A stretch of DNA of 60,988 bases, counting the filler, from Chloroflexota bacterium (GTDB lineage Bacteria > Chloroflexota > Chloroflexia > QHBQ01): the NCBI GenBank assembly GCA_043754535.1. It is 6 parts of 5 records of this genome, joined end to end, with 100 filler letters (N's around TTAATTAATTAA, not from the genome) between each part and the next. Parts side by side here need not be neighbours in the genome. Positions count along the whole stretch, not along the records: positions 1 to 7,936 come from JAYUUN010000121.1; 5 more parts are not named here. One strand, written 5' to 3'. Under the pieces are notes generated by a model, which saw only the letters and a program-made list of their open reading frames with translations, was not told the DNA's origin and did not search any database. The translations under genes and the position numbers were made by a program. Each line of letters begins with the position of its first letter. Position 1 is the first letter of the stretch. Shown here one piece after another: positions 1 through 53,749 of the stretch.

Positions 1-2
1 AG

Positions 3-3000
3 GAAGCTAAGGACGGCATAGCCCCAGGGCAGTGGGTGGGCTACAGCGTGGTGCAGCAGCCCGCCCCCGCCAGCTACAGTTGGTTGCGGGTGGACAGCAG
101 CGGCGATCCCAACCCGCACGTGATAGTTGGCGACCACGAAATCCAGTGGCAGTCCTTGCCCCTGCTCAGTATCGGCCACACCACCTTCGTGCTAACCGCC
201 CCCACGCCCACCCCAACCAACAGCCCGACGGCGAGCAGTACTGCGACCAACACCAGCACTGCCTACCCACCTTACCCGACACAGGTGCCGAACACCCCAC
301 GTCCCAGCCTCACTCCCGCCTCGACGCTGACTCCACGAGGCACGCCACCGCCCGACCCCAGTTGGACGGCGACGGCTACTGAGACGGTGCTACCGACCGA
401 GACGGCGACGGCCACGCCTAGCCTCTACCCCTACCCGACCAACAGCCCCTACCCAACCGAGCCGCCACTGCCAACCAACACGCCCTACCCAACCACCACC
501 CCTTACAACTGCGGTAATGAGTACTGCACCGCCACGCCGACGGTAACTCCCGCCGATTGTGGGGCGACCACTTGCACGCCGACCGCGACCGCCCAGGCCA
601 CTAACACCGCCACGCCAACGGTAGACGCGACTGGCACCTGCATTGCCGCTGGCAACTGCGCTGGTGGCACCGCCACAACGACCCCGAACGCGACTGAGAC
701 CTGCGTTGCCGCTGGTAACTGTGCTGGCACAGCCACGACGACCCCGAACGCGACCCAGACTTGTATTGCCGCTGGTAACTGTGCTGGTGGCACGCCCACG
801 GCAACCCCACCAGGGGGCAACTACAGCGACCACCTCAGCGGCCTCGTCCAACAGCAGAACGGCCAGCCCGTGGCTAACGCCCACCTGCTGATCTTCGCGG
901 TCTTCAGCGGTCAGGCCAGCCCGACCCTGACCAGCCTGGACAGCAGCAGTACGGGTGCCTGGCAGTTCGACATCCCCCGCCCGCAGCCCCCGACCGGCCT
1001 CAGCTTCGATGGCTACCAGGTCTTCCTCCAGCCCTCCTCCACGCTCGCGCCCTTTAGCATCGTTCTCAGCGACAGCACCGCTAGCGAGATCGGCAACAAC
1101 CACAACATGGTTGAGTACCGGCCCACCAGCTTCGGCCAGTCGTACAACAGCCTGGGCAAGACGCTGTTCATCGTAGCCTACGCGAACGCTACTCCAAACG
1201 CCACCCAGACCTGTATCGCGGCGGGCAACTGTGCGGGCGGCACGCCGACGGCAACCCCCAACGCCACCCAAACCTGTATCGCGGCGGGCAACTGTGTGAA
1301 CGGCACCGTTACTTCTACTCCAAACGCCACCCAGACCTGCATCGCGGCAGGTAACTGCTCTGGCACCGCGACCGCCCCTGCGCCCAACCTGACTGCCACC
1401 TGCCAGGCCAACCCAGCCTGCTCCGGCACGGCTACGAGTGTGGCGGCGACCAGCACAGCCTACCCCACCCAGATACCCTATACTCCCTATCCAACCAACA
1501 CGCCCCGCCCGACCAGCACGCCCCAACCCACTGCCGCCGTCGGCCAGGTGCAAGATACCGTTGGTGGCGACGTGCGCACGACCAGCGGCAGCCTGATCAC
1601 CAGCAGCATCACCCTGCAACCACAGAGCGTGATGCGGGTGGCGGGTCAACTGGTCTATACCAACCTGCCCGCCATCCAGTCGGGCGCGGACGGCAAATGG
1701 CAGTTCAGCAACAACCGCTGGCGGATGGACGGACGCAGCCAGTCTTTGACCGCGCTGCTCTCAGCCCAGCAACTAACCGAGGCGGGCAGTTGGGCGGGCT
1801 ACCGCGTGCTGGTTCAGTTGCCCAGTGGCACGGTGGCCTGGGACTTCCAGCCCCTCCAGCCGCCTGCGACGAAAGTCAATGCCTTCACTGGCGATTGGCC
1901 GCTCTCGGCAGCTGACCCTGCTTACGTACAGCCAATGGCCGGTCGCTTCGTCCTCCAGGTGCCGACCACACCAGCCACAGCGCAGGCAACTACCAGCGCA
2001 ACCATCGTGCCGACCACTACCTCGTCTACCCCCGCCAGCCCGACCACCGTGGTCAACGTTACCTACAAGAGCAGCCCCATCGCTGCCCCGACCGAGAACA
2101 TCAATGTGCCTGGCCTGCCTAAAACCGCTCACCAGCCAGGCTCGAACGCCCCGGTCAACACCGAACCAGGCGACACTGGCGGTCTCCCCGCTAGCTTCTG
2201 GCTGATCCTCAGCCTCGGTATGGGAACAATTGCCCTGAGTCTGGCTGTTACCCTCGCTGGCGGTAAGATCATCGCCTTCTTCCACTCTCACTCCTTATCG
2301 GACGGCAAGCCAATGTCTAGCCCAGCCAAGAACAGAACTCCCCGCAGAGGGGTCAAGTCAGCCGTCACTGCTCGCTCGATGGAGGAAATCGAACGCGAGC
2401 GAGCAGTGATGCTTGCGGCCCTGGAGCAGCTTGAAGTCGAAGCTAAAGTGGCCGCTCACCTTCAGGCAATCCAGGCTGAGATTGCGGAGATTGAAGCCAG
2501 GTTCTCGCAGCGGGCAACCCGGCGGGCAGAACTGGCGGCCTCTTACAACTCCCTTACCTATGTGGGATTGCCCCCCGCCGCCAACGAACTGAATGCGGCA
2601 GCCGTACTTCAGCATCTGCTGACCGCAGACACTAGCGCAGACACTAGCGCAGACACTAGTGCAGACACTAGCGTACCGGTTGTTCTACCACCCACAATAG
2701 CACAGGCTACTGCCAGCGAGGCAGCGACCCAGCTTGCCGACCTGAACACTACCCCGCTGGCAGAGTTCGAGTCGTACCTGGCCCGCCTGCCGTTCTCGGC
2801 TCGTCGTTCTAAGTGGCTGCGGCCCCAGCAACGGAATGGACCATTGCTGGGGCGGCAGCAGCCCCGTATGCTAGCCCCTGGCAAAGCCGCCTCCGTCAGC
2901 CTAAGCGACGCAGCACTGGTAGCCCTTGCACCTGCCCCGCTGCCCAGCGATCCACCCCGTGGTGGTGAGGTGCCGTCCTTCCTCCCTCATATCGATCCAC

Positions 3001-4406
3001 GAGCCGTAAGGCCCGCCACTATACCTCTGGTCGCGGACGATCAGCCTCAGCCGCTGGCCGACCAGTTGAGCAGCCAGCCCGCACTACCAACCGGGGCGCA
3101 ATCGCTGGAGAGTAACCTCAAACCCAACAATCCAACCAAGCCACTACTGACCAGCGTCCCTGCTGCTATGGCTACAGGATCACCCGACTATACACATGAG
3201 GCTGCACTACTGCCGCAGTTTAGTACAGCGGCGGCAGTAGTGCAGCCCGTTATAGCTCTGGCTGACACAACCCAACCGACCAGCCTGAGCGGGTCAGGCT
3301 CAGACGTAGGTCAACGAGGTAGGCAGGCTCAGCAATCGTCCCGGCAGCAGCCCCCTCCCCCTGGCCGCGAGGGGCGGCTCCACACCTGGCTGCTAGCCGC
3401 TACCCTGCTAGTTTGCTTGATGATCTGCTCCCTGGCTGGGGGGGTTTACCTCGACACTCACGCAAAGGAGGAAGCGAACACCATGTCAGATAGCCTGGCC
3501 TTCGCTCCCACCGCCACTGCCACCAGCCATTATCCAATATTGGCAACTGCTACCAGTTTCAATCGTGCCTCATCGGTACTGGCTACCGCCACCAGTCTCA
3601 GCTACGCTGCCAGTGCGGTCGCTACCAAACCAGCGGTGCCTACCTCAACCCCGCTGCTATCAGCAGCAAGCGTAGTAGTCGCTTCACCGACCGATCCGCC
3701 TGCTCCCCTCCTCGCAACCACTACGCTTGTTCCTCTGCTCGCCACATCAACCGCCACACCAACCGCTAGCCCCTTGCCTTCGGCCACTGAGCCGAAGGTA
3801 GACCCACCAGCGGTAGTCGCCAATCGGCAGCAGCCGAAACCACAAGCCTCTGCCGTGCCAACCGCCACTGCACCGCCTGAACAAAACAGTGGGGCTGAGG
3901 TTGCTAGCCAGCCCACCCCCGATGACAGTCATAGTGCGGCTCAGGTCACGCACCTGACCATCGCGCCCATCGCCCTGGACAGCGCGGTGGCAGTGGTCAG
4001 CTACCGTCCGGTAATGGGCAAGGACAGCCACGGTGATGCAGTGCAACTGCGAGACAAGAACGGCAATCTACGTTGGAAGTGGTTGACCCACGCTACTCTG
4101 CCAGGGCTACAAACCCCAGGCATCGGCTGCGGCGAGGCGGGCAATATTACGCTATCAGGCCACGATTGGGGTAGCAGCGGCATCTTTGTCAACCTGAAGA
4201 AGATGCAGAAGGGTGACCAGCTTATCTGCCGGGCCGCCGACGGTACCACTGCCACCTACACCTTCTTTGTGGTCAACGAGGATGCGGCCAAGAGCGACTA
4301 CACCATTGACGACCTGCGTCCAGGTGAGCAACGTACTATCACGTTGTACACCTGCAACCGTACTGGCACTGAGCGACGGGTGTTCGTCGCTCGGCTTATC
4401 ATCTAG
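3..4406 (+). CDS. Giant surface protein-sortase fusion (5' partial): Thr/Pro-rich and Cys-repeat ectodomain, LPxT-like signal + TM, cytoplasmic region, second TM, C-terminal sortase domain
   Basis: Frame is open from base 3 to the GTG at 36. C-terminus has the sortase pattern GNITLSGH..IFVNL..MQKGDQL..TITLYTC..ERRVFVA (His/Cys/Arg). LPKTA at 2115-2129 and PGDTG at 2166-2180 precede the hydrophobic FWLILSLGMGTIALSLAVTLAG; second TM is WLLAATLLVCLMICSLAGGVYL. Confidence 0.85.
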   Translation, partial: EAKDGIAPGQWVGYSVVQQPAPASYSWLRVDSSGDPNPHVIVGDHEIQWQSLPLLSIGHTTFVLTAPTPTPTNSPTASSTATNTSTAYPPYPTQVPNTPRPSLTPASTLTPRGTPPPDPSWTATATETVLPTETATATPSLYPYPTNSPYPTEPPLPTNTPYPTTTPYNCGNEYCTATPTVTPADCGATTCTPTATAQATNTATPTVDATGTCIAAGNCAGGTATTTPNATETCVAAGNCAGTATTTPNATQTCIAAGNCAGGTPTATPPGGNYSDHLSGLVQQQNGQPVANAHLLIFAVFSGQASPTLTSLDSSSTGAWQFDIPRPQPPTGLSFDGYQVFLQPSSTLAPFSIVLSDSTASEIGNNHNMVEYRPTSFGQSYNSLGKTLFIVAYANATPNATQTCIAAGNCAGGTPTATPNATQTCIAAGNCVNGTVTSTPNATQTCIAAGNCSGTATAPAPNLTATCQANPACSGTATSVAATSTAYPTQIPYTPYPTNTPRPTSTPQPTAAVGQVQDTVGGDVRTTSGSLITSSITLQPQSVMRVAGQLVYTNLPAIQSGADGKWQFSNNRWRMDGRSQSLTALLSAQQLTEAGSWAGYRVLVQLPSGTVAWDFQPLQPPATKVNAFTGDWPLSAADPAYVQPMAGRFVLQVPTTPATAQATTSATIVPTTTSSTPASPTTVVNVTYKSSPIAAPTENINVPGLPKTAHQPGSNAPVNTEPGDTGGLPASFWLILSLGMGTIALSLAVTLAGGKIIAFFHSHSLSDGKPMSSPAKNRTPRRGVKSAVTARSMEEIERERAVMLAALEQLEVEAKVAAHLQAIQAEIAEIEARFSQRATRRAELAASYNSLTYVGLPPAANELNAAAVLQHLLTADTSADTSADTSADTSVPVVLPPTIAQATASEAATQLADLNTTPLAEFESYLARLPFSARRSKWLRPQQRNGPLLGRQQPRMLAPGKAASVSLSDAALVALAPAPLPSDPPRGGEVPSFLPHIDPRAVRPATIPLVADDQPQPLADQLSSQPALPTGAQSLESNLKPNNPTKPLLTSVPAAMATGSPDYTHEAALLPQFSTAAAVVQPVIALADTTQPTSLSGSGSDVGQRGRQAQQSSRQQPPPPGREGRLHTWLLAATLLVCLMICSLAGGVYLDTHAKEEANTMSDSLAFAPTATATSHYPILATATSFNRASSVLATATSLSYAASAVATKPAVPTSTPLLSAASVVVASPTDPPAPLLATTTLVPLLATSTATPTASPLPSATEPKVDPPAVVANRQQPKPQASAVPTATAPPEQNSGAEVASQPTPDDSHSAAQVTHLTIAPIALDSAVAVVSYRPVMGKDSHGDAVQLRDKNGNLRWKWLTHATLPGLQTPGIGCGEAGNITLSGHDWGSSGIFVNLKKMQKGDQLICRAADGTTATYTFFVVNEDAAKSDYTIDDLRPGEQRTITLYTCNRTGTERRVFVARLII
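627..1430 (+). repeat. Two blocks of ~20-21 aa coding repeats, PNATQTC(I/V)AAGNC(A)GGT (6 copies plus 1 degenerate)
   Basis: Three copies at ~627-812; three copies plus TCQANPAC at ~1197-1430; a non-repetitive domain lies between the blocks. Confidence 0.9.
2625..2672 (+). repeat. 12-bp tandem repeat GCAGACACTAG(C/T) x4, encoding ADTS x4
   Basis: Read directly from the sequence. Confidence 0.95.
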
Positions 4407-4424
4407 CAGATTGGAGTAGGTAGG

Positions 4425-4796
4425 ATGAGCGACCAGCCCACAAAGCAACCAGCACAAGCCCGACCCGCCGACAGCAACGAACTGCGCTCGGCACTGCGGC
4501 ACATCTCGCCGACCGACTTCGCCCAATTCGCTACCCTGTGGCAGCATCAGCATGACGCTGACCTTCAGGAGGCTCTCCTGGCGGAGCAGGAGCAACTTGA
4601 CCAGGAAGATGCAGTAGACCGCGCCCGTCTTGCCCAGCTCGAAGGCTGGCTACTCGACCCTGCTAGCAGGCCAGCAGAGTTGTTCGCTACCCCTCCTGTT
4701 GGGGCCAGCTTATCTTCTTTTCAATCGTCAATCGTCAACCGTCAATTGCCACGCACTTACACTCACAATCGCCGCACATTCCTTACAACCATCTGA
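4425..4796 (+). CDS. Hypothetical protein with coiled-coil character
   Basis: ATG 18 nt after the previous stop, with GGAG upstream; acidic helical segment LQEALLAEQEQLDQED. Confidence 0.65.
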   Translation: MSDQPTKQPAQARPADSNELRSALRHISPTDFAQFATLWQHQHDADLQEALLAEQEQLDQEDAVDRARLAQLEGWLLDPASRPAELFATPPVGASLSSFQSSIVNRQLPRTYTHNRRTFLTTI

Positions 4797-4807
4797 GACA
4801 AACCATC

Positions 4808-5866
4808 ATGAGTAGCCCCCTACCGCCCGACAGCCCGAACCAGAATCGTCCTCTCAGCCCCGCTGAGCGGGAGCGGCTGCGTGACCTCGACCAGCAGATC
4901 GGGGTCTTGGAGGATCAGGAGCGGGCCGTGCTGGCCTGGCTGGACGCGCCACCACCTGCTGAGGTGCGAATGCCGGGGGCGGATGAGGCGATCCTGATCC
5001 CACTACCGGAAGGCGACCTGGGAATGTTGGCCCAGGACAGCAGCCTGCTACGCGTGACGCTGCGGGCCGCTACTCCGCGCACGGCTCAGGAAGTGCGCGA
5101 CGCAGCTGGGGAGCGGGCGCAGGCAGTAGTCGCCCCCTTGCGTGGGCTGTCCGCTCAGATAGCAAAGCTACAAACCTACCGCCGCCAACTGATCGGCGGT
5201 ACCGCCCTGCTGTTCGTGTTGGCAGCGGGCCTCTACCTCTACCGCGTCAACAGTGGGCCGCAAGCAGGCAGCGAGCCACCTACTATCGTAGATTCTGCGC
5301 GGGCGACGCTGGTGGCGGTAGAGCTGACTCCGCTCTCCTCCCCAACGCCGATCCCGACCGTCACCCTACCACCGCCATCACCCACCGCCCTGCACGGCAG
5401 CTACCTGCCGCCCGACAGCATTCGCATCCAGGTAGCAGATGGTAAGCCAGTGGATTTGTACTTGCGGCCCGCCCGCTCGCTGTCGGGCGGCAGGCTGCTG
5501 ATCTACCCACCCGACGGCCAGTACGCCTACCAGTATGGTCCCTACCCACAGGAAGGAGGCAACACCGTAATTCTAGGGCGGTGGGAGGATTGGGGGCCAC
5601 TGCTGGCGATCCTGCGGATCAACGACCGGGTTCCAGTCACGATCCGCACCGCGCAAGACTTGCCGCAGCGTGGCAGCGTCGCCCCTACTCATTTCTACAT
5701 AGTGACTGCCTGTGACCTGCATGGCGAGACCCTCTGCCCGGTCGATCCCGCCTACACCCCCCTGCTTGGTCAATCCCCACAGGGACAATCCATGCTCACC
5801 ATCATCGTTGGTCGAGCAGGCCAAAACTACTACCTGCGAGCGGTCGCCCCCCGCAGTACACCGTAA
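4808..5866 (+). CDS. Membrane-anchored sortase-fold protein lacking the catalytic His/Cys (pseudo-sortase)
   Basis: Coiled-coil N-terminus, TM (LIGGTALLFVLAAGLYLY), Pro/Thr linker, then PDSIRI..YPP..PQEGGNTVILGR..LRINDRV..FYIVT..VDP..MLTIIVG..YYLRA, which follows sortase motif order. Confidence 0.6.
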   Translation: MSSPLPPDSPNQNRPLSPAERERLRDLDQQIGVLEDQERAVLAWLDAPPPAEVRMPGADEAILIPLPEGDLGMLAQDSSLLRVTLRAATPRTAQEVRDAAGERAQAVVAPLRGLSAQIAKLQTYRRQLIGGTALLFVLAAGLYLYRVNSGPQAGSEPPTIVDSARATLVAVELTPLSSPTPIPTVTLPPPSPTALHGSYLPPDSIRIQVADGKPVDLYLRPARSLSGGRLLIYPPDGQYAYQYGPYPQEGGNTVILGRWEDWGPLLAILRINDRVPVTIRTAQDLPQRGSVAPTHFYIVTACDLHGETLCPVDPAYTPLLGQSPQGQSMLTIIVGRAGQNYYLRAVAPRSTP

Positions 5867-5872
5867 AACTAA

Positions 5873-5896
5873 CCCCGCAACAGGCGACCTGCGGGG
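5873..5896 (+). other. Intergenic hairpin directly upstream of the pilin gene
   Basis: CCCCG-caa-CAGG cga CCTG-CGGGG; no U-tract, so possibly an mRNA stability or processing element. Confidence 0.45.
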
Positions 5897-5946
5897 GCAA
5901 CTGCGACCAACATCAACCAACATATAGTCCCTATAGGAGGATTCTC

Positions 5947-6303
5947 ATGTTTGACCGTCTTTTTATTCTCTACAACCTGGCGGTCAGCAGTGCGCTGACC
6001 TTGCTGACCACCAGGCTGCCCCAGGTGTTCGGCGTAGACATCAGCCCTCCGCAACTCCTGCGGAACCTTGGCACCTTTCTGGTTTCGGCGATCACTAACA
6101 ACCTGGTTGGCATCGGGGGGGTAGTGGGCGCACTCGCCGCCGGCGGCATAATTGCGTCAGGTTTCGCTGGTAATCGTGGCCCCCGCGACTACGCCGTTAA
6201 CCTGATCAAGTGGGTGATTATCGGCGTGGTTGCGCTGTCCGCTATTGGCGGCGTGATCACCTTCGCCACCAACGGGATCACGACCGGCACCGCCGGTTCG
6301 TAA
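5947..6303 (+). CDS. VirB2/TrbC-like conjugative pilin
   Basis: 118 aa; strong RBS AGGAGG at 5935-5940; leader followed by two Gly-rich hydrophobic helices separated by a short basic loop (FAGNRGPRDYAVNLIKWVIIG). Confidence 0.65.
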   Translation: MFDRLFILYNLAVSSALTLLTTRLPQVFGVDISPPQLLRNLGTFLVSAITNNLVGIGGVVGALAAGGIIASGFAGNRGPRDYAVNLIKWVIIGVVALSAIGGVITFATNGITTGTAGS

Positions 6304-6340
6304 GTCGGTAGTCCGTTCCGTCCAGAGAGGAAGACCAACT

Positions 6341-7936
6341 ATGCAGCAGCAAGAGACGACGCAAGACAGCAGCCCGGAAGTCAGCAGGCAGGATCGCCGC
6401 GCCGGTCGCCTGTCAACGCTTGGCCTCTTGCTGTTGCTGGCAATACCGTTCGGGGTCAGTGGCTGCCAGAGCTGGCAGGATATCAAGTCCCTACCGACCG
6501 ACCCACTACCCACCGTCCAAATCCAACCTATGACCCCGGTACCTCAAACGCCAGTGGTGGCACCCCTACCGACCTTTGTTACCAACCAGAACTTCCCGAT
6601 CAAACCTGCTCAGGGACAACCGGGTGGACCTGCTGGCTGCTACGACAATACCTCATTCTGGCCGATGCAGTGGCTACGCGACATCGGTGCGTTCTTCCTC
6701 GACAAGATGATGGGCGGGTTGATCTACGGCACCTACGGCCTGTTCAGTCTGGCGGTCAACACTGGCTCCGCCCCAGTTGATCAGCCCGTGGTAATGAAGG
6801 TCTTCATGGTGATGTGTGGGGTAGCCTACGGCCTTGTCACCTTCAGTGGCCTTTGGCTTGTGATCAAGATGTTCGGTCGGGGCTTCGGCTTCGTCCGCAC
6901 CCTTAACCTGGGCCAATATTTCGGCAACCTCATCCTGGTACTGGTGCTGATCCTACCAGTAGGTGATTACCCACTACTCGCCTACGGCGCATCAGTGCCA
7001 GTCACGTTGGCGGGTAAAGCGTTCGTTATCCTGATCAACTCAAGCTCGACCGCTGCTGGTGGGGCCGCCTTCACCGACATGGCGAACCCCTACACCCCAG
7101 CGGGCGGGAGCCTACGGATGAACCCAGCGATCTCCACCGATGGTACTCACCGCGACAACAATCTTGACTGCTCGGTGCTAGACAACCCTATGAAGATCGG
7201 CACCGGCTTTGGGGTGAGCTTCGGCTTCGGCCTGCTGGCACTGGTTTGGATGCTCTACATCCCAATGGTGTTCATTCTGTTCATGATCTCGCCGGTGGCG
7301 TTCGCCCTGCGCTGCTACGAAGAAGCTACTGGGTACTACCAGCAGTGGCAAACAAGTTACTTGCAGTCGGTTGGCAGCATCGTGCCGGTCGGTTTCGTCT
7401 TGCTGGTGGTAGGAGCATTTGTGGGGGCGGTCACCTCCTCCTCCGACCCCTCCGCTATCCTGCTAGCGATCCTGATTACCCTGATCTGCCTGTTCCTGGC
7501 CTTCAAGCTGGCCTGGGGGATGCTCAAGGGGGCAGGGCAGCGAGTGCAGCGATTGGTGTCGCAGCGTAGCGAGATCAGCAAAGAGACGATCAGAGGGGAG
7601 AAAGCACGACTGGCGGTGAGCGGCGGTGAGCAGACCGTCCCCAATTTCAGAGTGGCAGCCCCTAGCCTCAGTCTAGCCAGTCCAGGCAGCGGCGGCAACC
7701 AGTTTGGTCTGCCTCAGCCAATGCAGATGCAGTACGCCAACCAGCCCCAGACCAGTTACCAACTTCCTCCGCTGGAAGCTGGGTCAGGGGGAGTAGCTGG
7801 TTACGGCAATCTGAGCGGAGGTGGTTACGGTATGGCGGCCAGCTACCCCCCGGTTCCAGCCCAGGCAGTAGCTGAGCTGACCCGCAGCCTCAGTCTCGAA
7901 CGGGTGCTGCAAAACCAGCGCGGCCCGCTCTATACC
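6341..7936 (+). CDS. VirB6/TrbL-like polytopic membrane protein (3' partial)
   Basis: Possible lipobox GVSGC, multiple TMs with a central loop, ISPVAFAL..YYQQW motif, Gly/Gln-rich tail; directly follows the pilin-like gene. Confidence 0.55.
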
Positions 7937-8036
7937 NNNNNNNNNNNNNNNNNNNNNNNNNNNNNNNNNNNNNNNNNNNNTTAATTAATTAANNNNNNNN
8001 NNNNNNNNNNNNNNNNNNNNNNNNNNNNNNNNNNNN
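7937..8036. other. Artificial contig spacer
   Basis: 44 N + TTAATTAATTAA (stops in all six frames) + 44 N. Confidence 0.99.
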
Positions 8037-8038
8037 CC

Positions 8039-10588
8039 AGCCCACCTGCCAGAGGCGGCGCACTGGCTTCGCGCCTGGGTGGGCAACCAGCCCCAGCCCC
8101 AGCTAACGACGCGCTTGGTGGACTTGACAGCCTGCGAAGTGGCATCGCCGGGTTCTCAGCCGCCGACTTGCCGCAGACTGGCGAACTGAACGGCTATGTG
8201 GTGCCGCCGCAGCCGGTCGCTAGCCCCTTCCGCCGCGAGGAGGAGGAGAACCGCCACCGCGATAGCGAGTCGTCGGTAGACTGGCTGGCTAGCCTGCGTG
8301 CATCGTCCAGCCTGACAGAAGAAGCAGAGCAGGCTAGCGAGGCGAGCGACAACTGGCTCAATCGGGTGCGCGGAGCGGATAGCTACAACCCGCCACCCAC
8401 AGGCCGCTCGCTCAGCCAGCCACTCGATGCGATACGGCCAACCGCAACCTCGCTCAATGCGCCCCCCAGCCAGCCAGCCGAGGCACAACACGGGGTAGTA
8501 GAACAGCCCAACAGCGGCCAGTCGTTGCCCGACTGGTTCCGCAGCCTGCGCGGTGAGGAAACGGAGCGGCCCGCGCCCACCACCGACAGCATCCCGCCCT
8601 GGCTGGCGGAGCAGCCTGTACCCGCCGCCAGCAACCTCCCGGCCTGGTTGAGCGGGGAGGATGCGCCAGCCACGATTGCGGCTCCTGCACCAACCAGAGC
8701 GGACAGCGACCTGCCACCCTGGTTGCAGGAGGAGGCAGCCAGCCAACCACCCGCTGCCGCCAGCAATCTGCCCTCCTGGTTGAGCGGTGAGGACGTGGAT
8801 ACCGCCCCTGAACCCAGTAGCAACCTGCCCTCCTGGTTGAGCGGCACAACGCCAGAGACAACAACCAGCAGCCCAACCTGGGCTAGCAGCCCCCCACCTG
8901 CGCCTACCCCCGCCCACGATAGCAACCCCGGCCTGCTAGGAGAAGTGGACGCACCCTGGTTGCAGCAACTTGCTGCTCAACCACTGCCCACCCCACCACC
9001 CATAGCAACCCAGCCGCAACGCACTGCTGCCGACTTCTTTCCTGCCAGCGTCTCAACCAACCAGCCGGATGAGATGGCAGAGGAGAACGACGAGATGCCA
9101 CCCTGGTTGCTAGCCGAGGAGCAGGACGAGGCAGCCACCCCCACTAGTCAGAGCTTTGTTCAAGCCGAACCCGACCTGGATGGAGACACGGACGAGGGGG
9201 AGGAGCAAGCTGTAGCTGAGCCGACCGCTGGGCGGAAGAAGGCAACTGGGCTGATCAACGAGGAGGACTTGCCCGCCTGGTTGCGGGCGCAGGTGGCGGA
9301 GCAGGAGCAGGGCCAGGTGCGCTTGCCCCGCTCTGCCAGCCGCGCCAACACTGCCGCTAATCTACGCCCAGAGCAGGGTGAGGGCAGTGGCTACGTGCCG
9401 AACTGGTTGCGGAACCTGGGGACGAGCGACGAGGACGCGACCGCTGCTGCCAACGCTGCAACCGCCGCCGCGACCGCCGCCAGCGACCTGACCGCGACGC
9501 TGGCCCCTGCTATGCCCAAGATCAGCCGCACCATGACGATCCGTAGCCCCCGCACTGGGGCCGCCGAGGCCTTCGCTGCCCTGGTCTCCTCGCCCAGCAG
9601 CGCGACCCTGACCTCCTCTGTGCTGCGCCACGAACCACGCAGGGCAGCCGGGGCGATGCGCTACCTGACGGCAGACCGCCTGATCTACCTGCTTACCCTG
9701 GCCGTGATCATCGCGGCTTATGTGCTAGGCCAGAGTTCGAGTGGTGGCCCGCTCGGTAATATCGCCAAGCCCAACATTGCGCCTGCCGTTAGCAGCTTCT
9801 ACAGCACGATTGAGAACCTGCCCGCTGATGCGCCAGTGCTGGTCGCTTTCGACTGGGATGCCGACCGCCAGGCGGAGTTGCAACCGCTCAGTTACGCTGT
9901 GCTGCGCCACCTGTTTGATCGTCAGCGGCGGGTGACAACCATCAGCCTGTTGCCAGCGGGGGCGGCCTTCGCCCAGCAGGAGTTGCAGCGAGCCGGTAAA
10001 GATTACGATGCAAGCCAGCAGAACACGGGTAAGAAGATCGAGTACCTCAACCTCGGCTACCTGCCAGGCAACGAGATCGGCCTGCGTGGGCTGGCGACTG
10101 GCCCCCTTGCCAACGCTCTAACCGGGCGGGCCGACTTCCAGGGCAACCCTCTGACTGGCAATGCCGCCCTGCGTGGGGTCAACCGCCTGAGCGACTACCG
10201 CCTGATCGTGCTGCTAGAGGGCGACGAAGGGCTAGCCCGCCAGTGGGCCGAGCAACTGAACGCAGCCCGCCTGCAAACCCAGCAGCTAGCCAACGCCAGC
10301 GGCGTGAACCAGGCTACCCAGGTAGTGATCGGTTATAGCCAGGCGGCCCAGGCGACCGTCAATCTCTACTTGAACGGCAGCCGCCCCCTGTTCAACGGCA
10401 ATATCGCGGGCCTACTTGGCACCGATCAGTACGCACTCGCCCTCAACCAGGCGGGCAAGGCTCTGGACAGCCAACTGGGGCGCGAACAACGCTCCAATGT
10501 CCTCTCCTTCGCCCTGATCCTCATCGTCCTCTTGATCATCATCGGCAATATCGTGCTGATTAGCCGCTGGGCCAGCAACCGACGTTAG
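8039..10588 (+). CDS. Membrane protein with acidic PxWL-repeat N-terminus and an extracytoplasmic alpha/beta domain (5' partial)
   Basis: Frame open back to the spacer; about 12 (L/I)PxW(L/F)-type motifs, TM, IENLPADAPVLVAFDW..AELQP..YLNLGYLPG domain, C-terminal TM. Confidence 0.8.
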   Translation, partial: SPPARGGALASRLGGQPAPAPANDALGGLDSLRSGIAGFSAADLPQTGELNGYVVPPQPVASPFRREEEENRHRDSESSVDWLASLRASSSLTEEAEQASEASDNWLNRVRGADSYNPPPTGRSLSQPLDAIRPTATSLNAPPSQPAEAQHGVVEQPNSGQSLPDWFRSLRGEETERPAPTTDSIPPWLAEQPVPAASNLPAWLSGEDAPATIAAPAPTRADSDLPPWLQEEAASQPPAAASNLPSWLSGEDVDTAPEPSSNLPSWLSGTTPETTTSSPTWASSPPPAPTPAHDSNPGLLGEVDAPWLQQLAAQPLPTPPPIATQPQRTAADFFPASVSTNQPDEMAEENDEMPPWLLAEEQDEAATPTSQSFVQAEPDLDGDTDEGEEQAVAEPTAGRKKATGLINEEDLPAWLRAQVAEQEQGQVRLPRSASRANTAANLRPEQGEGSGYVPNWLRNLGTSDEDATAAANAATAAATAASDLTATLAPAMPKISRTMTIRSPRTGAAEAFAALVSSPSSATLTSSVLRHEPRRAAGAMRYLTADRLIYLLTLAVIIAAYVLGQSSSGGPLGNIAKPNIAPAVSSFYSTIENLPADAPVLVAFDWDADRQAELQPLSYAVLRHLFDRQRRVTTISLLPAGAAFAQQELQRAGKDYDASQQNTGKKIEYLNLGYLPGNEIGLRGLATGPLANALTGRADFQGNPLTGNAALRGVNRLSDYRLIVLLEGDEGLARQWAEQLNAARLQTQQLANASGVNQATQVVIGYSQAAQATVNLYLNGSRPLFNGNIAGLLGTDQYALALNQAGKALDSQLGREQRSNVLSFALILIVLLIIIGNIVLISRWASNRR

Positions 10589-31646: not shown

Positions 31647-31746
31647 NNNNNNNNNNNNNNNNNNNNNNNNNNNNNNNNNNNNNNNNNNNNTTAATTAATT
31701 AANNNNNNNNNNNNNNNNNNNNNNNNNNNNNNNNNNNNNNNNNNNN
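31647..31746. other. Artificial contig spacer
   Basis: N44-TTAATTAATTAA-N44. Confidence 0.99.
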
Positions 31747-39438: not shown

Positions 39439-39538
39439 NNNNNNNNNNNNNNNNNNNNNNNNNNNNNNNNNNNNNNNNNNNNTTAATTAATTAANNNNNN
39501 NNNNNNNNNNNNNNNNNNNNNNNNNNNNNNNNNNNNNN
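39439..39538. other. Artificial contig spacer
   Basis: N44-TTAATTAATTAA-N44. Confidence 0.99.
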
Positions 39539-45991: not shown

Positions 45992-46091
45992 NNNNNNNNN
46001 NNNNNNNNNNNNNNNNNNNNNNNNNNNNNNNNNNNTTAATTAATTAANNNNNNNNNNNNNNNNNNNNNNNNNNNNNNNNNNNNNNNNNNNN
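45992..46091. other. Artificial contig spacer
   Basis: N44-TTAATTAATTAA-N44. Confidence 0.99.
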
Positions 46092-53649: not shown

Positions 53650-53749
53650 NNNNNNNNNNNNNNNNNNNNNNNNNNNNNNNNNNNNNNNNNNNNTTAATTA
53701 ATTAANNNNNNNNNNNNNNNNNNNNNNNNNNNNNNNNNNNNNNNNNNNN
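53650..53749. other. Artificial contig spacer
   Basis: N44-TTAATTAATTAA-N44. Confidence 0.99.

Follow-up and report, generated by a model that had tools for sequence, protein, structure and literature searches.

We describe an open reading frame in which a cell-surface protein and a sortase are encoded as one polypeptide. It lies at the start of the window, the 60,988-nucleotide stretch of DNA analysed here, which is joined from contigs of a Chloroflexota metagenome-assembled genome (MAG; GCA_043754535.1; 132 contigs, 3.87 Mb, 88.9% complete). Positions 1-7936 of the window are one 7936-nt contig (C121). Positions beyond 7936 are other contigs of the MAG, joined via runs of N, and their place in the window does not imply that they neighbour the fusion locus. 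Sortase and substrate here form a pair that is fused in an unusual way, and the sortase comes from an undescribed subfamily. We suggest that two adjacent genes, normally coupled in translation, fused in frame recently and in this lineage only, and that the fusion would resolve itself by cleavage at PGDT/G and is tolerated for that reason. We consider this account probable.

Window positions 3-4406 (+) form a single open frame of 1467 amino acids, open at its 5' end: the contig start is also the window start and cuts off the protein N-terminus. The domain order is a Thr/Pro/Cys-rich ectodomain, LPKTA, PGDTG, a first transmembrane segment (TM1), a 364-residue cytoplasmic part, a second transmembrane segment (TM2), a Pro/Thr (PT)-rich linker and a sortase domain (Table 1). 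An earlier sequence-only reading of this DNA had reported the frame and these motifs, and all were recovered at the same positions. Hydropathy gives exactly two transmembrane segments (aa 730-761 and aa 1126-1152). The net charge is +6 in the 30 residues after TM1 and +3 before TM2, with -2 at each outer flank, and all 21 cysteines fall in the two predicted outer parts, none of them in the cytoplasmic part or the linker. Since the charge distribution and the two transmembrane segments fit it, the signals in the chain are consistent with an out-in-out topology that puts ectodomain and sortase on the same outer face, as first proposed. A weaker bias in the G+C content of third codon positions (GC3) had also been noted across the cytoplasmic part and linker, and it holds. 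GC3 is 0.78 in the ectodomain, 0.60 in the cytoplasmic part, 0.54 in the linker and 0.72 in the sortase domain (genome mean 0.742, sd 0.062). This step fits two genes of unlike make-up; the dip overlaps low-complexity regions too.

The fusion is real in the DNA and is not a read or assembly error, because independent contigs cross the junction without an indel. Eight sequencing runs contain every sampled word of nt 1900-2800 (100%); they come from five studies, of glacier, freshwater, sediment and an unspecified metagenome. In four of these studies, Logan contigs span nt 2270-2330, the interval singled out for checking in the sequence-only reading, with 0 gaps: X1 covers 1395-7899, X3 1323-4615, X4 1395-4872 and X5 743-7936, with 8, 10, 5 and 1 letters differing from the window, respectively. 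Their listed indels occur only at nt 495-566, in the repeat region. A further metagenome contig, L034, is identical to window 1810-7936 but for 3 substitutions over 6127 nt, again without an indel, so that neither the contigs of the four studies nor L034 show a stop or an indel at the junction. The junction was checked on contigs rather than on reads. The listed substitutions between nt 1400 and 4406 (nt 1682, 1763, 1766, 1769, 3161 and 4145) are synonymous third positions in six of six cases, with representatives in ectodomain, cytoplasmic part and sortase domain alike. A single non-synonymous change, P644L, comes from L034 and brings the synonymous share to 6/7 of the known substitutions. 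At nt 4145 the window has T where the contigs of four runs and L034 have C (synonymous, Asn), and the MAG base is private or a minority variant. A stop or indel missed in the MAG could be proposed on the grounds that the MAG is in 132 contigs and that the repeat-rich region upstream of nt 1400 assembles poorly. We find this hardly credible, as five independent assemblies agree over the junction, without an indel and with distinct patterns of single-nucleotide polymorphisms (SNPs).

By its sequence and its modelled fold, the C-terminal domain is a sortase, for which transpeptidase activity is predicted. Pfam PF04203 matches the full frame at 48.3 bits (cut-off 26.6, E 1.1e-12, aa 1376-1465) and the domain alone at 52.9 bits. 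In a 49-sequence alignment His1387 and Cys1451 (columns H88 and C152) are invariant and Arg1458 (column R159) is at least 90% conserved, which bears out the catalytic His, Cys and Arg assigned in the sequence-only reading. The AlphaFold2 (AF2) model of the domain has a pLDDT of 92.1 and a pTM of 0.83, and together with a Foldseek search it supports the eight-stranded beta-barrel fold of a sortase. Foldseek returned 111 matches in the PDB at E<=0.001, and all 45 among the matches listed are sortases (classes A, C, D and E). The top match is Clostridium perfringens SrtD (4d70_A, E 9.1e-8, TM-score 0.62), and TM-scores of ~0.6 cannot separate sortase classes. Profile searches meant to give the class identify a sortase through PF04203 and go no further: no cut-off was reached with the NCBIfam sortase models (classes C, D, E and F, SrtD and the generic TIGR01076). 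The scores were 34.1 bits for class E (cut-off 160), 25.3 for class F (166), 18 for class D (165) and 17.4 for class C (160), and the four other sortase-domain proteins of the genome likewise stay under the class cut-offs. On these comparisons, the sortase belongs to a rare Chloroflexia family outside the NCBIfam class models, laid out as a basic, coiled-coil cytoplasmic N-terminus, one transmembrane segment and a long PT-rich linker, with the catalytic domain at the C-terminus.

In the relatives, adhesin and sortase are split. In G001, a genome of the same genus, an 852-aa surface protein with a C-terminal transmembrane segment precedes a 565-aa sortase, and the TGA of the former overlaps the ATG of the latter as ATGA. 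In L035, a metagenome contig, the homologous adhesin ends in '…TRPGA' with TAG, and the ATG of an 812-aa sortase follows 2 nt later (spacer context TAGCAATG). The sortase start of these split relatives therefore lies 2-4 nt from the adhesin stop, in a different frame. The sortase halves are homologous (E 3e-23), and the relatives' proteins are ~32% identical to those of the window, too diverged for a nucleotide reconstruction of the exact mutation. A search across 41 genomes, 37 of which gave some sortase match, found G001 as the best non-self match (E 5.4e-18); this tally includes four unpublished genomes, on which no conclusion is based. Among 1.84 billion representative proteins, 69 matched at E<=0.001 and 7 at E<=1e-10. 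The latter are one identical 183-aa fragment and six proteins of 685, 709, 613, 812, 880 and 565 aa, each with the sortase domain at its extreme C-terminus (6/6). P0003, the closest homologue, shares 55% identity in the domain, and its N-terminus aligns to the cytoplasmic part of the window protein (E 4e-4), with its residue 25 at aa 790 and its residue 1 thus corresponding to aa 766, five before Met771. A more remote family member, P0048 (667 aa), is likewise stand-alone and shares the architecture.

A homologue that keeps the fusion was not found: both loci with upstream DNA (G001 and L035) are split, and all six close homologues are of stand-alone length. Searches from the adhesin side are uninformative in this respect. 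They gave no homologue at E<=0.001 with residues 495-770 against proteins of similar length, with the adhesin alignment against longer ones or with junction residues 560-1000; low-complexity words dominate and the query itself was not recovered, so they are no evidence on other fused forms. Across 301 genomes of the class, the adhesin profile gave 2 matches, the window's own genome and a marginal one (E 7.8e-4). Seven long matches of 943-3203 aa (P0010, P0013, P0016, P0018, P0032, P0036 and P0053) were considered as fused sortases and rejected, since Pfam finds a sortase domain in none of them: six are built of beta-sandwich repeats, and P0036 has no family match. As a separate observation, the unrelated 643-aa frame P0017 has SpaA-like adhesin domains followed by 'KYPNTG' and then, without a transmembrane segment in between, a sortase domain (71.6 bits with PF04203). 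Either another natural fusion of substrate and sortase or a gene call with a frameshift may account for it.

The surface half is probably an adhesin. Between its residues 514-676 and the C-terminal domain of the L035 adhesin, which has a gene of its own, there is a match of 34% over 167 aa (E 3e-18). Two regions of the ectodomain are non-repetitive (~aa 267-406 and ~aa 515-655), and Pfam and NCBIfam searches of the ectodomain gave no family match. In the ESM Atlas, aa 510-656 reached a best score of 0.84, without a family, and aa 267-406 reached 0.91 to unnamed clusters and 0.88 to transthyretin-like and CarboxypepD_reg clusters, which are leads only. An AF2 model of the adhesin C-terminal part from a 2-row alignment has a pLDDT of 39.7, too low for use. 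The repeat region assembles poorly and varies among samples, with indels and joints at 232-808. Its units, 'PNAT(Q/E)TC(I/V)AAGNCAGG', are embedded in PT-rich linkers, and each holds a C-x6-C pair and an N-A-T sequon; comparable Cys loops are present in the G001 and L035 adhesins. The G001 surface protein has an N-terminal hydrophobic segment, an S-layer homology (SLH) domain and PT-rich linkers with Cys loops. In this protein (L022 2566-5124) the SLH domain (PF00395, 40.4 bits) is an additional module for binding the wall, a non-covalent one; none is seen in the available part of the window protein.

There are two candidate sorting motifs ahead of TM1, and neither is a canonical LPXTG pentapeptide, since the fifth residue of LPKTA is Ala and PGDTG has no Leu-Pro. 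The sequence-only reading named LPKTA as a site. 'VPGLPKTA' mirrors the 'PGLPxTG' context of this genome with Ala in place of Gly, and the same genome has ~12 LPxTG proteins, often with 'PGLP(R/Q)TG', among the listed tails of 246 open reading frames (ORFs) with a C-terminal transmembrane segment and basic tail. We favour PGDT/G as the better-supported predicted cleavage site, from three sequences only, because its position before the membrane segment is conserved while LPKTA sits within 14 inserted residues that L035 lacks. PGDTGG-LP aligns with PAKTGG-DP of L035, and the G001 counterpart is SASTG-AEAPNWQ-LP. In all three proteins the x-x-x-T-G motif stands 1-8 residues ahead of the C-terminal transmembrane segment of the adhesin, which is the spacing of the genome's canonical LPxTG signals. 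The hydrophobic segment expected after a sorting motif is present, with TM1 starting 3 residues past PGDTG. The basic tail is not at a true C-terminus: 706 residues follow, and the charge is mostly that of the old sortase N-terminus. A complex prediction of the sortase domain with residues 693-734 scored 0.01 against a mark of 0.32 and counts neither way.

The junction itself retains traces of two genes. The segment KNRTPRRGVK, at first taken for the basic tail of the sorting signal, lies 3' of Met771 and, on alignment, is the basic N-terminus of the sortase half rather than the tail of the adhesin; the stand-alone homologue P0003 begins with a basic stretch as well. An out-of-frame TAG at 2318-2320 overlaps ATG 2313 as ATGTCTAG, and its frame is open from 2267. 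This TAG, with its overlap, is possibly the ancestral adhesin stop. Digested with trypsin, the read-through product would give a junction peptide containing …IIAFFHSHSLSDGKPMSSPAK.

These features suggest how the fusion could have arisen. Ancestral gene 1 would have encoded a Thr/Pro/Cys-rich surface protein with an x-x-x-T-G motif, then a membrane anchor and finally a short tail at its end, and ancestral gene 2 a dedicated sortase of the rare Chloroflexia family. As the starts in the split relatives lie near the stops in a different frame, a single-base indel could skip the stop and join the frames. One base lost within ~nt 2267-2317 would have done this, bringing both frames into phase, and a one-base loss would suffice because the out-of-frame TAG still overlaps the old sortase start. 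The sequence-only reading had offered a recent two-gene fusion or a lost stop, with a start at 2313, as its alternative, and the split relatives match it. Another reading is that one frame gives two products: an internal start at ATG 2313 would yield a free, working sortase, and the read-through fusion would be a tolerated by-product. Met771 is within 5 residues of the P0003 N-terminus in a collinear alignment, the product of the next gene likewise begins MSSP, and GC3 shifts near the junction. However, no clear Shine-Dalgarno sequence precedes ATG 2313 (TCGGACGGCAAGCCAATG), and there is no stop codon, so ribosomes from upstream would make the fused form regardless. We rate this reading as unlikely, and it is compatible with the fusion of coupled genes that we favour.

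In the fusion account we favour, Sec would export the ectodomain, with TM1 as the stop-transfer segment, and TM2 would re-insert the chain and export the linker and the sortase, giving a two-TM precursor. The sortase domain of the same chain or of a neighbour would then attack PGDT/G and form an acyl-enzyme, from which the ectodomain would be handed to a wall acceptor. The remnant, starting GG-LPASF…, would be a working two-TM sortase. The fusion would be cheap, and so tolerated, because cleavage would restore the split state. A low-cost fusion fits the young, intact and widespread allele. We think it likeliest that the fused state is an accident that the cell tolerates, and not a new mechanism; nothing here shows that it is favoured by selection.

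The sequence-only reading preferred a design in which the protein processes its own ectodomain. In its full form this would be a natural self-processing sortase precursor, cut in cis at PGDT/G and selected for 1:1 stoichiometry and for privacy from LPXTG sortases. Substrate and enzyme are predicted on the same membrane face, with its flexible 159-aa linker the domain could get to a site that lies 3 residues above TM1, and the frame is intact with mostly synonymous listed changes over several populations. The split relatives are already coupled 1:1 by start/stop overlap, and crosstalk is conceivable with four other sortase-domain genes and ~12 LPxTG proteins in the genome. On the other side, every relative found is split or of stand-alone length, the fusion lineage is young, only a few SNPs apart, and purifying selection on both halves is expected whether they are fused or not. 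We give a selected cis mechanism only a small chance. Smaller still, in our judgement, is the chance that the fusion is a non-functional accident in a decaying cassette, with export or folding of one or both halves disabled. The fusion is confined to this lineage, on a short contig, in a rare and probably mobile cassette whose adhesin profile matches so few genomes of the class, one of them marginally. Yet the 4.4-kb frame and the catalytic residues are intact, nearly all known substitutions are synonymous, and the allele is shared by glacier, freshwater and sediment samples of five studies. Taken as a whole, the single frame, the sortase, the topology and the fusion alternative of the sequence-only reading stand, and its cis design, its LPKTA site and its basic tail are not supported.

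Several points weigh against the fusion account. The fusion is seen at the level of DNA, and translation, cleavage and wall attachment of the product are predictions. The adhesins of the window and G001 match at best with E 0.056, which is not significant, and their orthology is judged from position and architecture only. The split state of P0003-P0007 is deduced from length and N-termini only. The x-x-x-T-G motif is supported by three sequences, none of them a canonical LPXTG. Some of the sequencing runs are possibly the MAG's own source sample, and 26 further contig differences lie outside the listed ones, so the synonymous tally is incomplete.

Table 1. Features of the fusion locus and of the window (positions are those of the window)
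Feature	Position	Strand	Residues	Basis or remark
Ectodomain, surface half	3..2189	+	aa 1-729	Thr/Ala/Pro-rich, 18 Cys; 5' end cut by contig start
Cys-loop repeats 'NAT(Q/E)TC(I/V)AAGNCAG'	625..793	+		tandem 60-nt units, period 60 x 2.7 copies
Second Cys-loop repeat array	1194-1357	+		period 63 x 2.6 copies
LPKTA	2115..2129	+	aa 705	20 residues before TM1
PGDTG, candidate cleavage motif (PGDT/G)	2166..2180	+	aa 722	3 residues before TM1
TM1	2190..2285	+	aa 730-761	hydropathy; aligned to C-terminal membrane anchor of separate adhesins
Fusion junction	2286..2320	+		adhesin tail HSHSLSDGKP, then in-frame ATG 2313 (Met771)
MSSP start-like segment	2313	+	Met771	in frame with ectodomain
Cytoplasmic N-terminal part of sortase half	2313..3377	+	aa 771-1125	basic start, coiled-coil-like stretch, (ADTS)x4, Pro/Ala/Gln-rich region; no Cys
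12-nt tandem repeat, 4.2 copies	2624-2673			encodes (ADTS)x4; in cytoplasmic part
TM2, sortase signal-anchor	3378..3458	+	aa 1126-1152	hydropathy; in 7/7 aligned family members
Extracellular linker	3459..3935	+	159 aa	Ala/Thr/Pro/Ser-rich
Sortase catalytic domain and stop codon	3936..4406	+		Pfam PF04203, AF2, Foldseek
Catalytic His	4161-4163		His1387	GHDWG
Catalytic Cys	4353-4355		Cys1451	LYTCN
Catalytic Arg	4374-4376		Arg1458	
Small protein	4425..4796	+	123 aa	no family match
Membrane protein, pseudo-sortase	4808..5866	+	352 aa	sortase-like domain without catalytic His and Cys
Pilin-like small membrane protein	5947..6303	+	118 aa	sub-threshold: PF18895 T4SS_pilin E 0.038, NF045849 E 0.02
Polytopic membrane protein	6341..7936	+		cut by contig end; 929 aa in full on L034
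N runs between contigs	7937-8036, 31647-31746, 39439-39538, 45992-46091, 53650-53749			

Downstream of the fused gene lies a cassette with a conserved order: adhesin, sortase, a ~125-aa protein, a 324-360-aa pseudo-sortase, a pilin-like protein, a 552-929-aa polytopic protein, a small transmembrane protein and an M23 peptidase. This order is seen in the window together with L034, in L035, in L036 and in G001 as far as its contig end. Small ORFs occupy the place of the 123-aa protein in G001 (129 aa, 486..875) and in L035, with the likeness judged by eye on unaligned sequences. The pseudo-sortase matches the sortase family in hhalign through its C-terminal domain (probability 83.2%, E 8.7e-6), with His replaced by R/G and Cys by V/A. 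It is conserved (window 4808-5866, L035 4094-5176, L036 1756-2730), always two genes past the true sortase. The L035 counterpart of the pilin-like protein matches PF18895 at E 0.009, sub-threshold, and the polytopic protein matches NF045848 (conjugal transfer protein) weakly, under the cut-off (E 0.0023). Window 5947-7936 and L034 4532-9359 together encode the pilin-like protein, the 929-aa polytopic protein, a 171-aa transmembrane protein, a 411-aa M23 peptidase and a 96-aa transmembrane protein. The 171-aa protein is PrgI-like through a sub-threshold match (PF12666, E 0.038), and the peptidase (7775-9010) matches PF01551 at 39.8 bits against a cut-off of 28.7, with 29.0 bits for its L036 counterpart. 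As a lead, the cassette resembles a Gram-positive-type conjugation or type IV secretion system (T4SS) operon with a mating adhesin; the M23 peptidase is the one component that passes its cut-off. In the MAG, which is 88.9% complete and whose cassette contigs end early, a search for a VirB4-type ATPase gave only a sub-threshold PF12846 match on another contig (20.6 bits), and one for a coupling protein (PF12696) gave none. The cassette is rare: the sortase patterns match one close locus in species genomes (G001) and three metagenome records, one identical and two from relatives.

Sortases and their substrates are normally separate proteins. Among the papers listed by literature searches, none describes a natural sortase-substrate fusion or this sortase family in its title or abstract opening. 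If the chain is a cis precursor, engineered self-cleaving sortase fusions would have in it their first natural counterpart. With both parts in one natural chain and a permissive topology, the protein offers a test of cis sortase action in a membrane and of the fusion of enzyme and substrate genes. If it is merely a tolerated accident, it would be a clean example of a self-resolving gene fusion. In either case the locus reveals a rare Chloroflexia sortase family with a long coiled-coil cytoplasmic N-terminus, a candidate motif other than LPXTG, a dead paralogue and a possible link to DNA transfer. The new specificity (x-x-x-T-G with Pro/Ala/Gly), if true, could be of use in protein ligation.

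The locus can be set beside three known arrangements. The first is the sortase linked to conjugation. PrgB of pCF10 is a sortase-anchored mating adhesin. In Clostridium perfringens, pCW3 depends on SrtD to be transferred efficiently, according to the section of the review drawn on here (PMC8225981). Like such systems, the cassette encodes adhesin and sortase together with pilin-like, polytopic-membrane and cell-wall-hydrolase genes, and the best Foldseek match happens to be SrtD. It differs in that its T4SS character comes from sub-threshold matches and one M23 peptidase, with no VirB4 ATPase or coupling protein found in the MAG by PF12846 or PF12696.

The second arrangement is the dedicated sortase-substrate pair. 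Class B, C and D sortases are encoded beside their substrates in monoderm bacteria. Here too a membrane-anchored Cys transpeptidase with His, Cys and Arg, and with a sortase fold borne out by the model and its Foldseek matches, adjoins a surface protein gene, and that surface protein closes with a T-G motif followed by a hydrophobic segment and a charged region. Unlike those pairs, the two are one polypeptide, and the motif is PGDTG or LPKTA rather than LPXTG. The sortase also has a ~360-aa cytoplasmic N-terminal part and a 159-aa linker, and it reaches no NCBIfam class cut-off. The classes and motifs of monoderm sortases are the subject of a review, which is used here in part (PMC8225981).

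The third is the engineered fusion of a sortase, LPETG and a target (Mao 2004), which cleaves itself, even during expression, as set out in the portion of the source relied on here (PMC2901362). Enzyme and recognition motif share one chain in both cases, and in the engineered fusion cleavage between Thr and Gly separates the parts. The engineered case documents that a sortase can cut within its own polypeptide, which makes the cleavage proposed here feasible. The engineered fusions, as that portion presents them, run in the order sortase-LPETG-target and are soluble, with Staphylococcus aureus SrtA as the enzyme. In contrast, the window protein, for which cleavage is a prediction, is membrane-embedded and runs in the order substrate, motif, transmembrane segment, cytoplasmic part, transmembrane segment and sortase.

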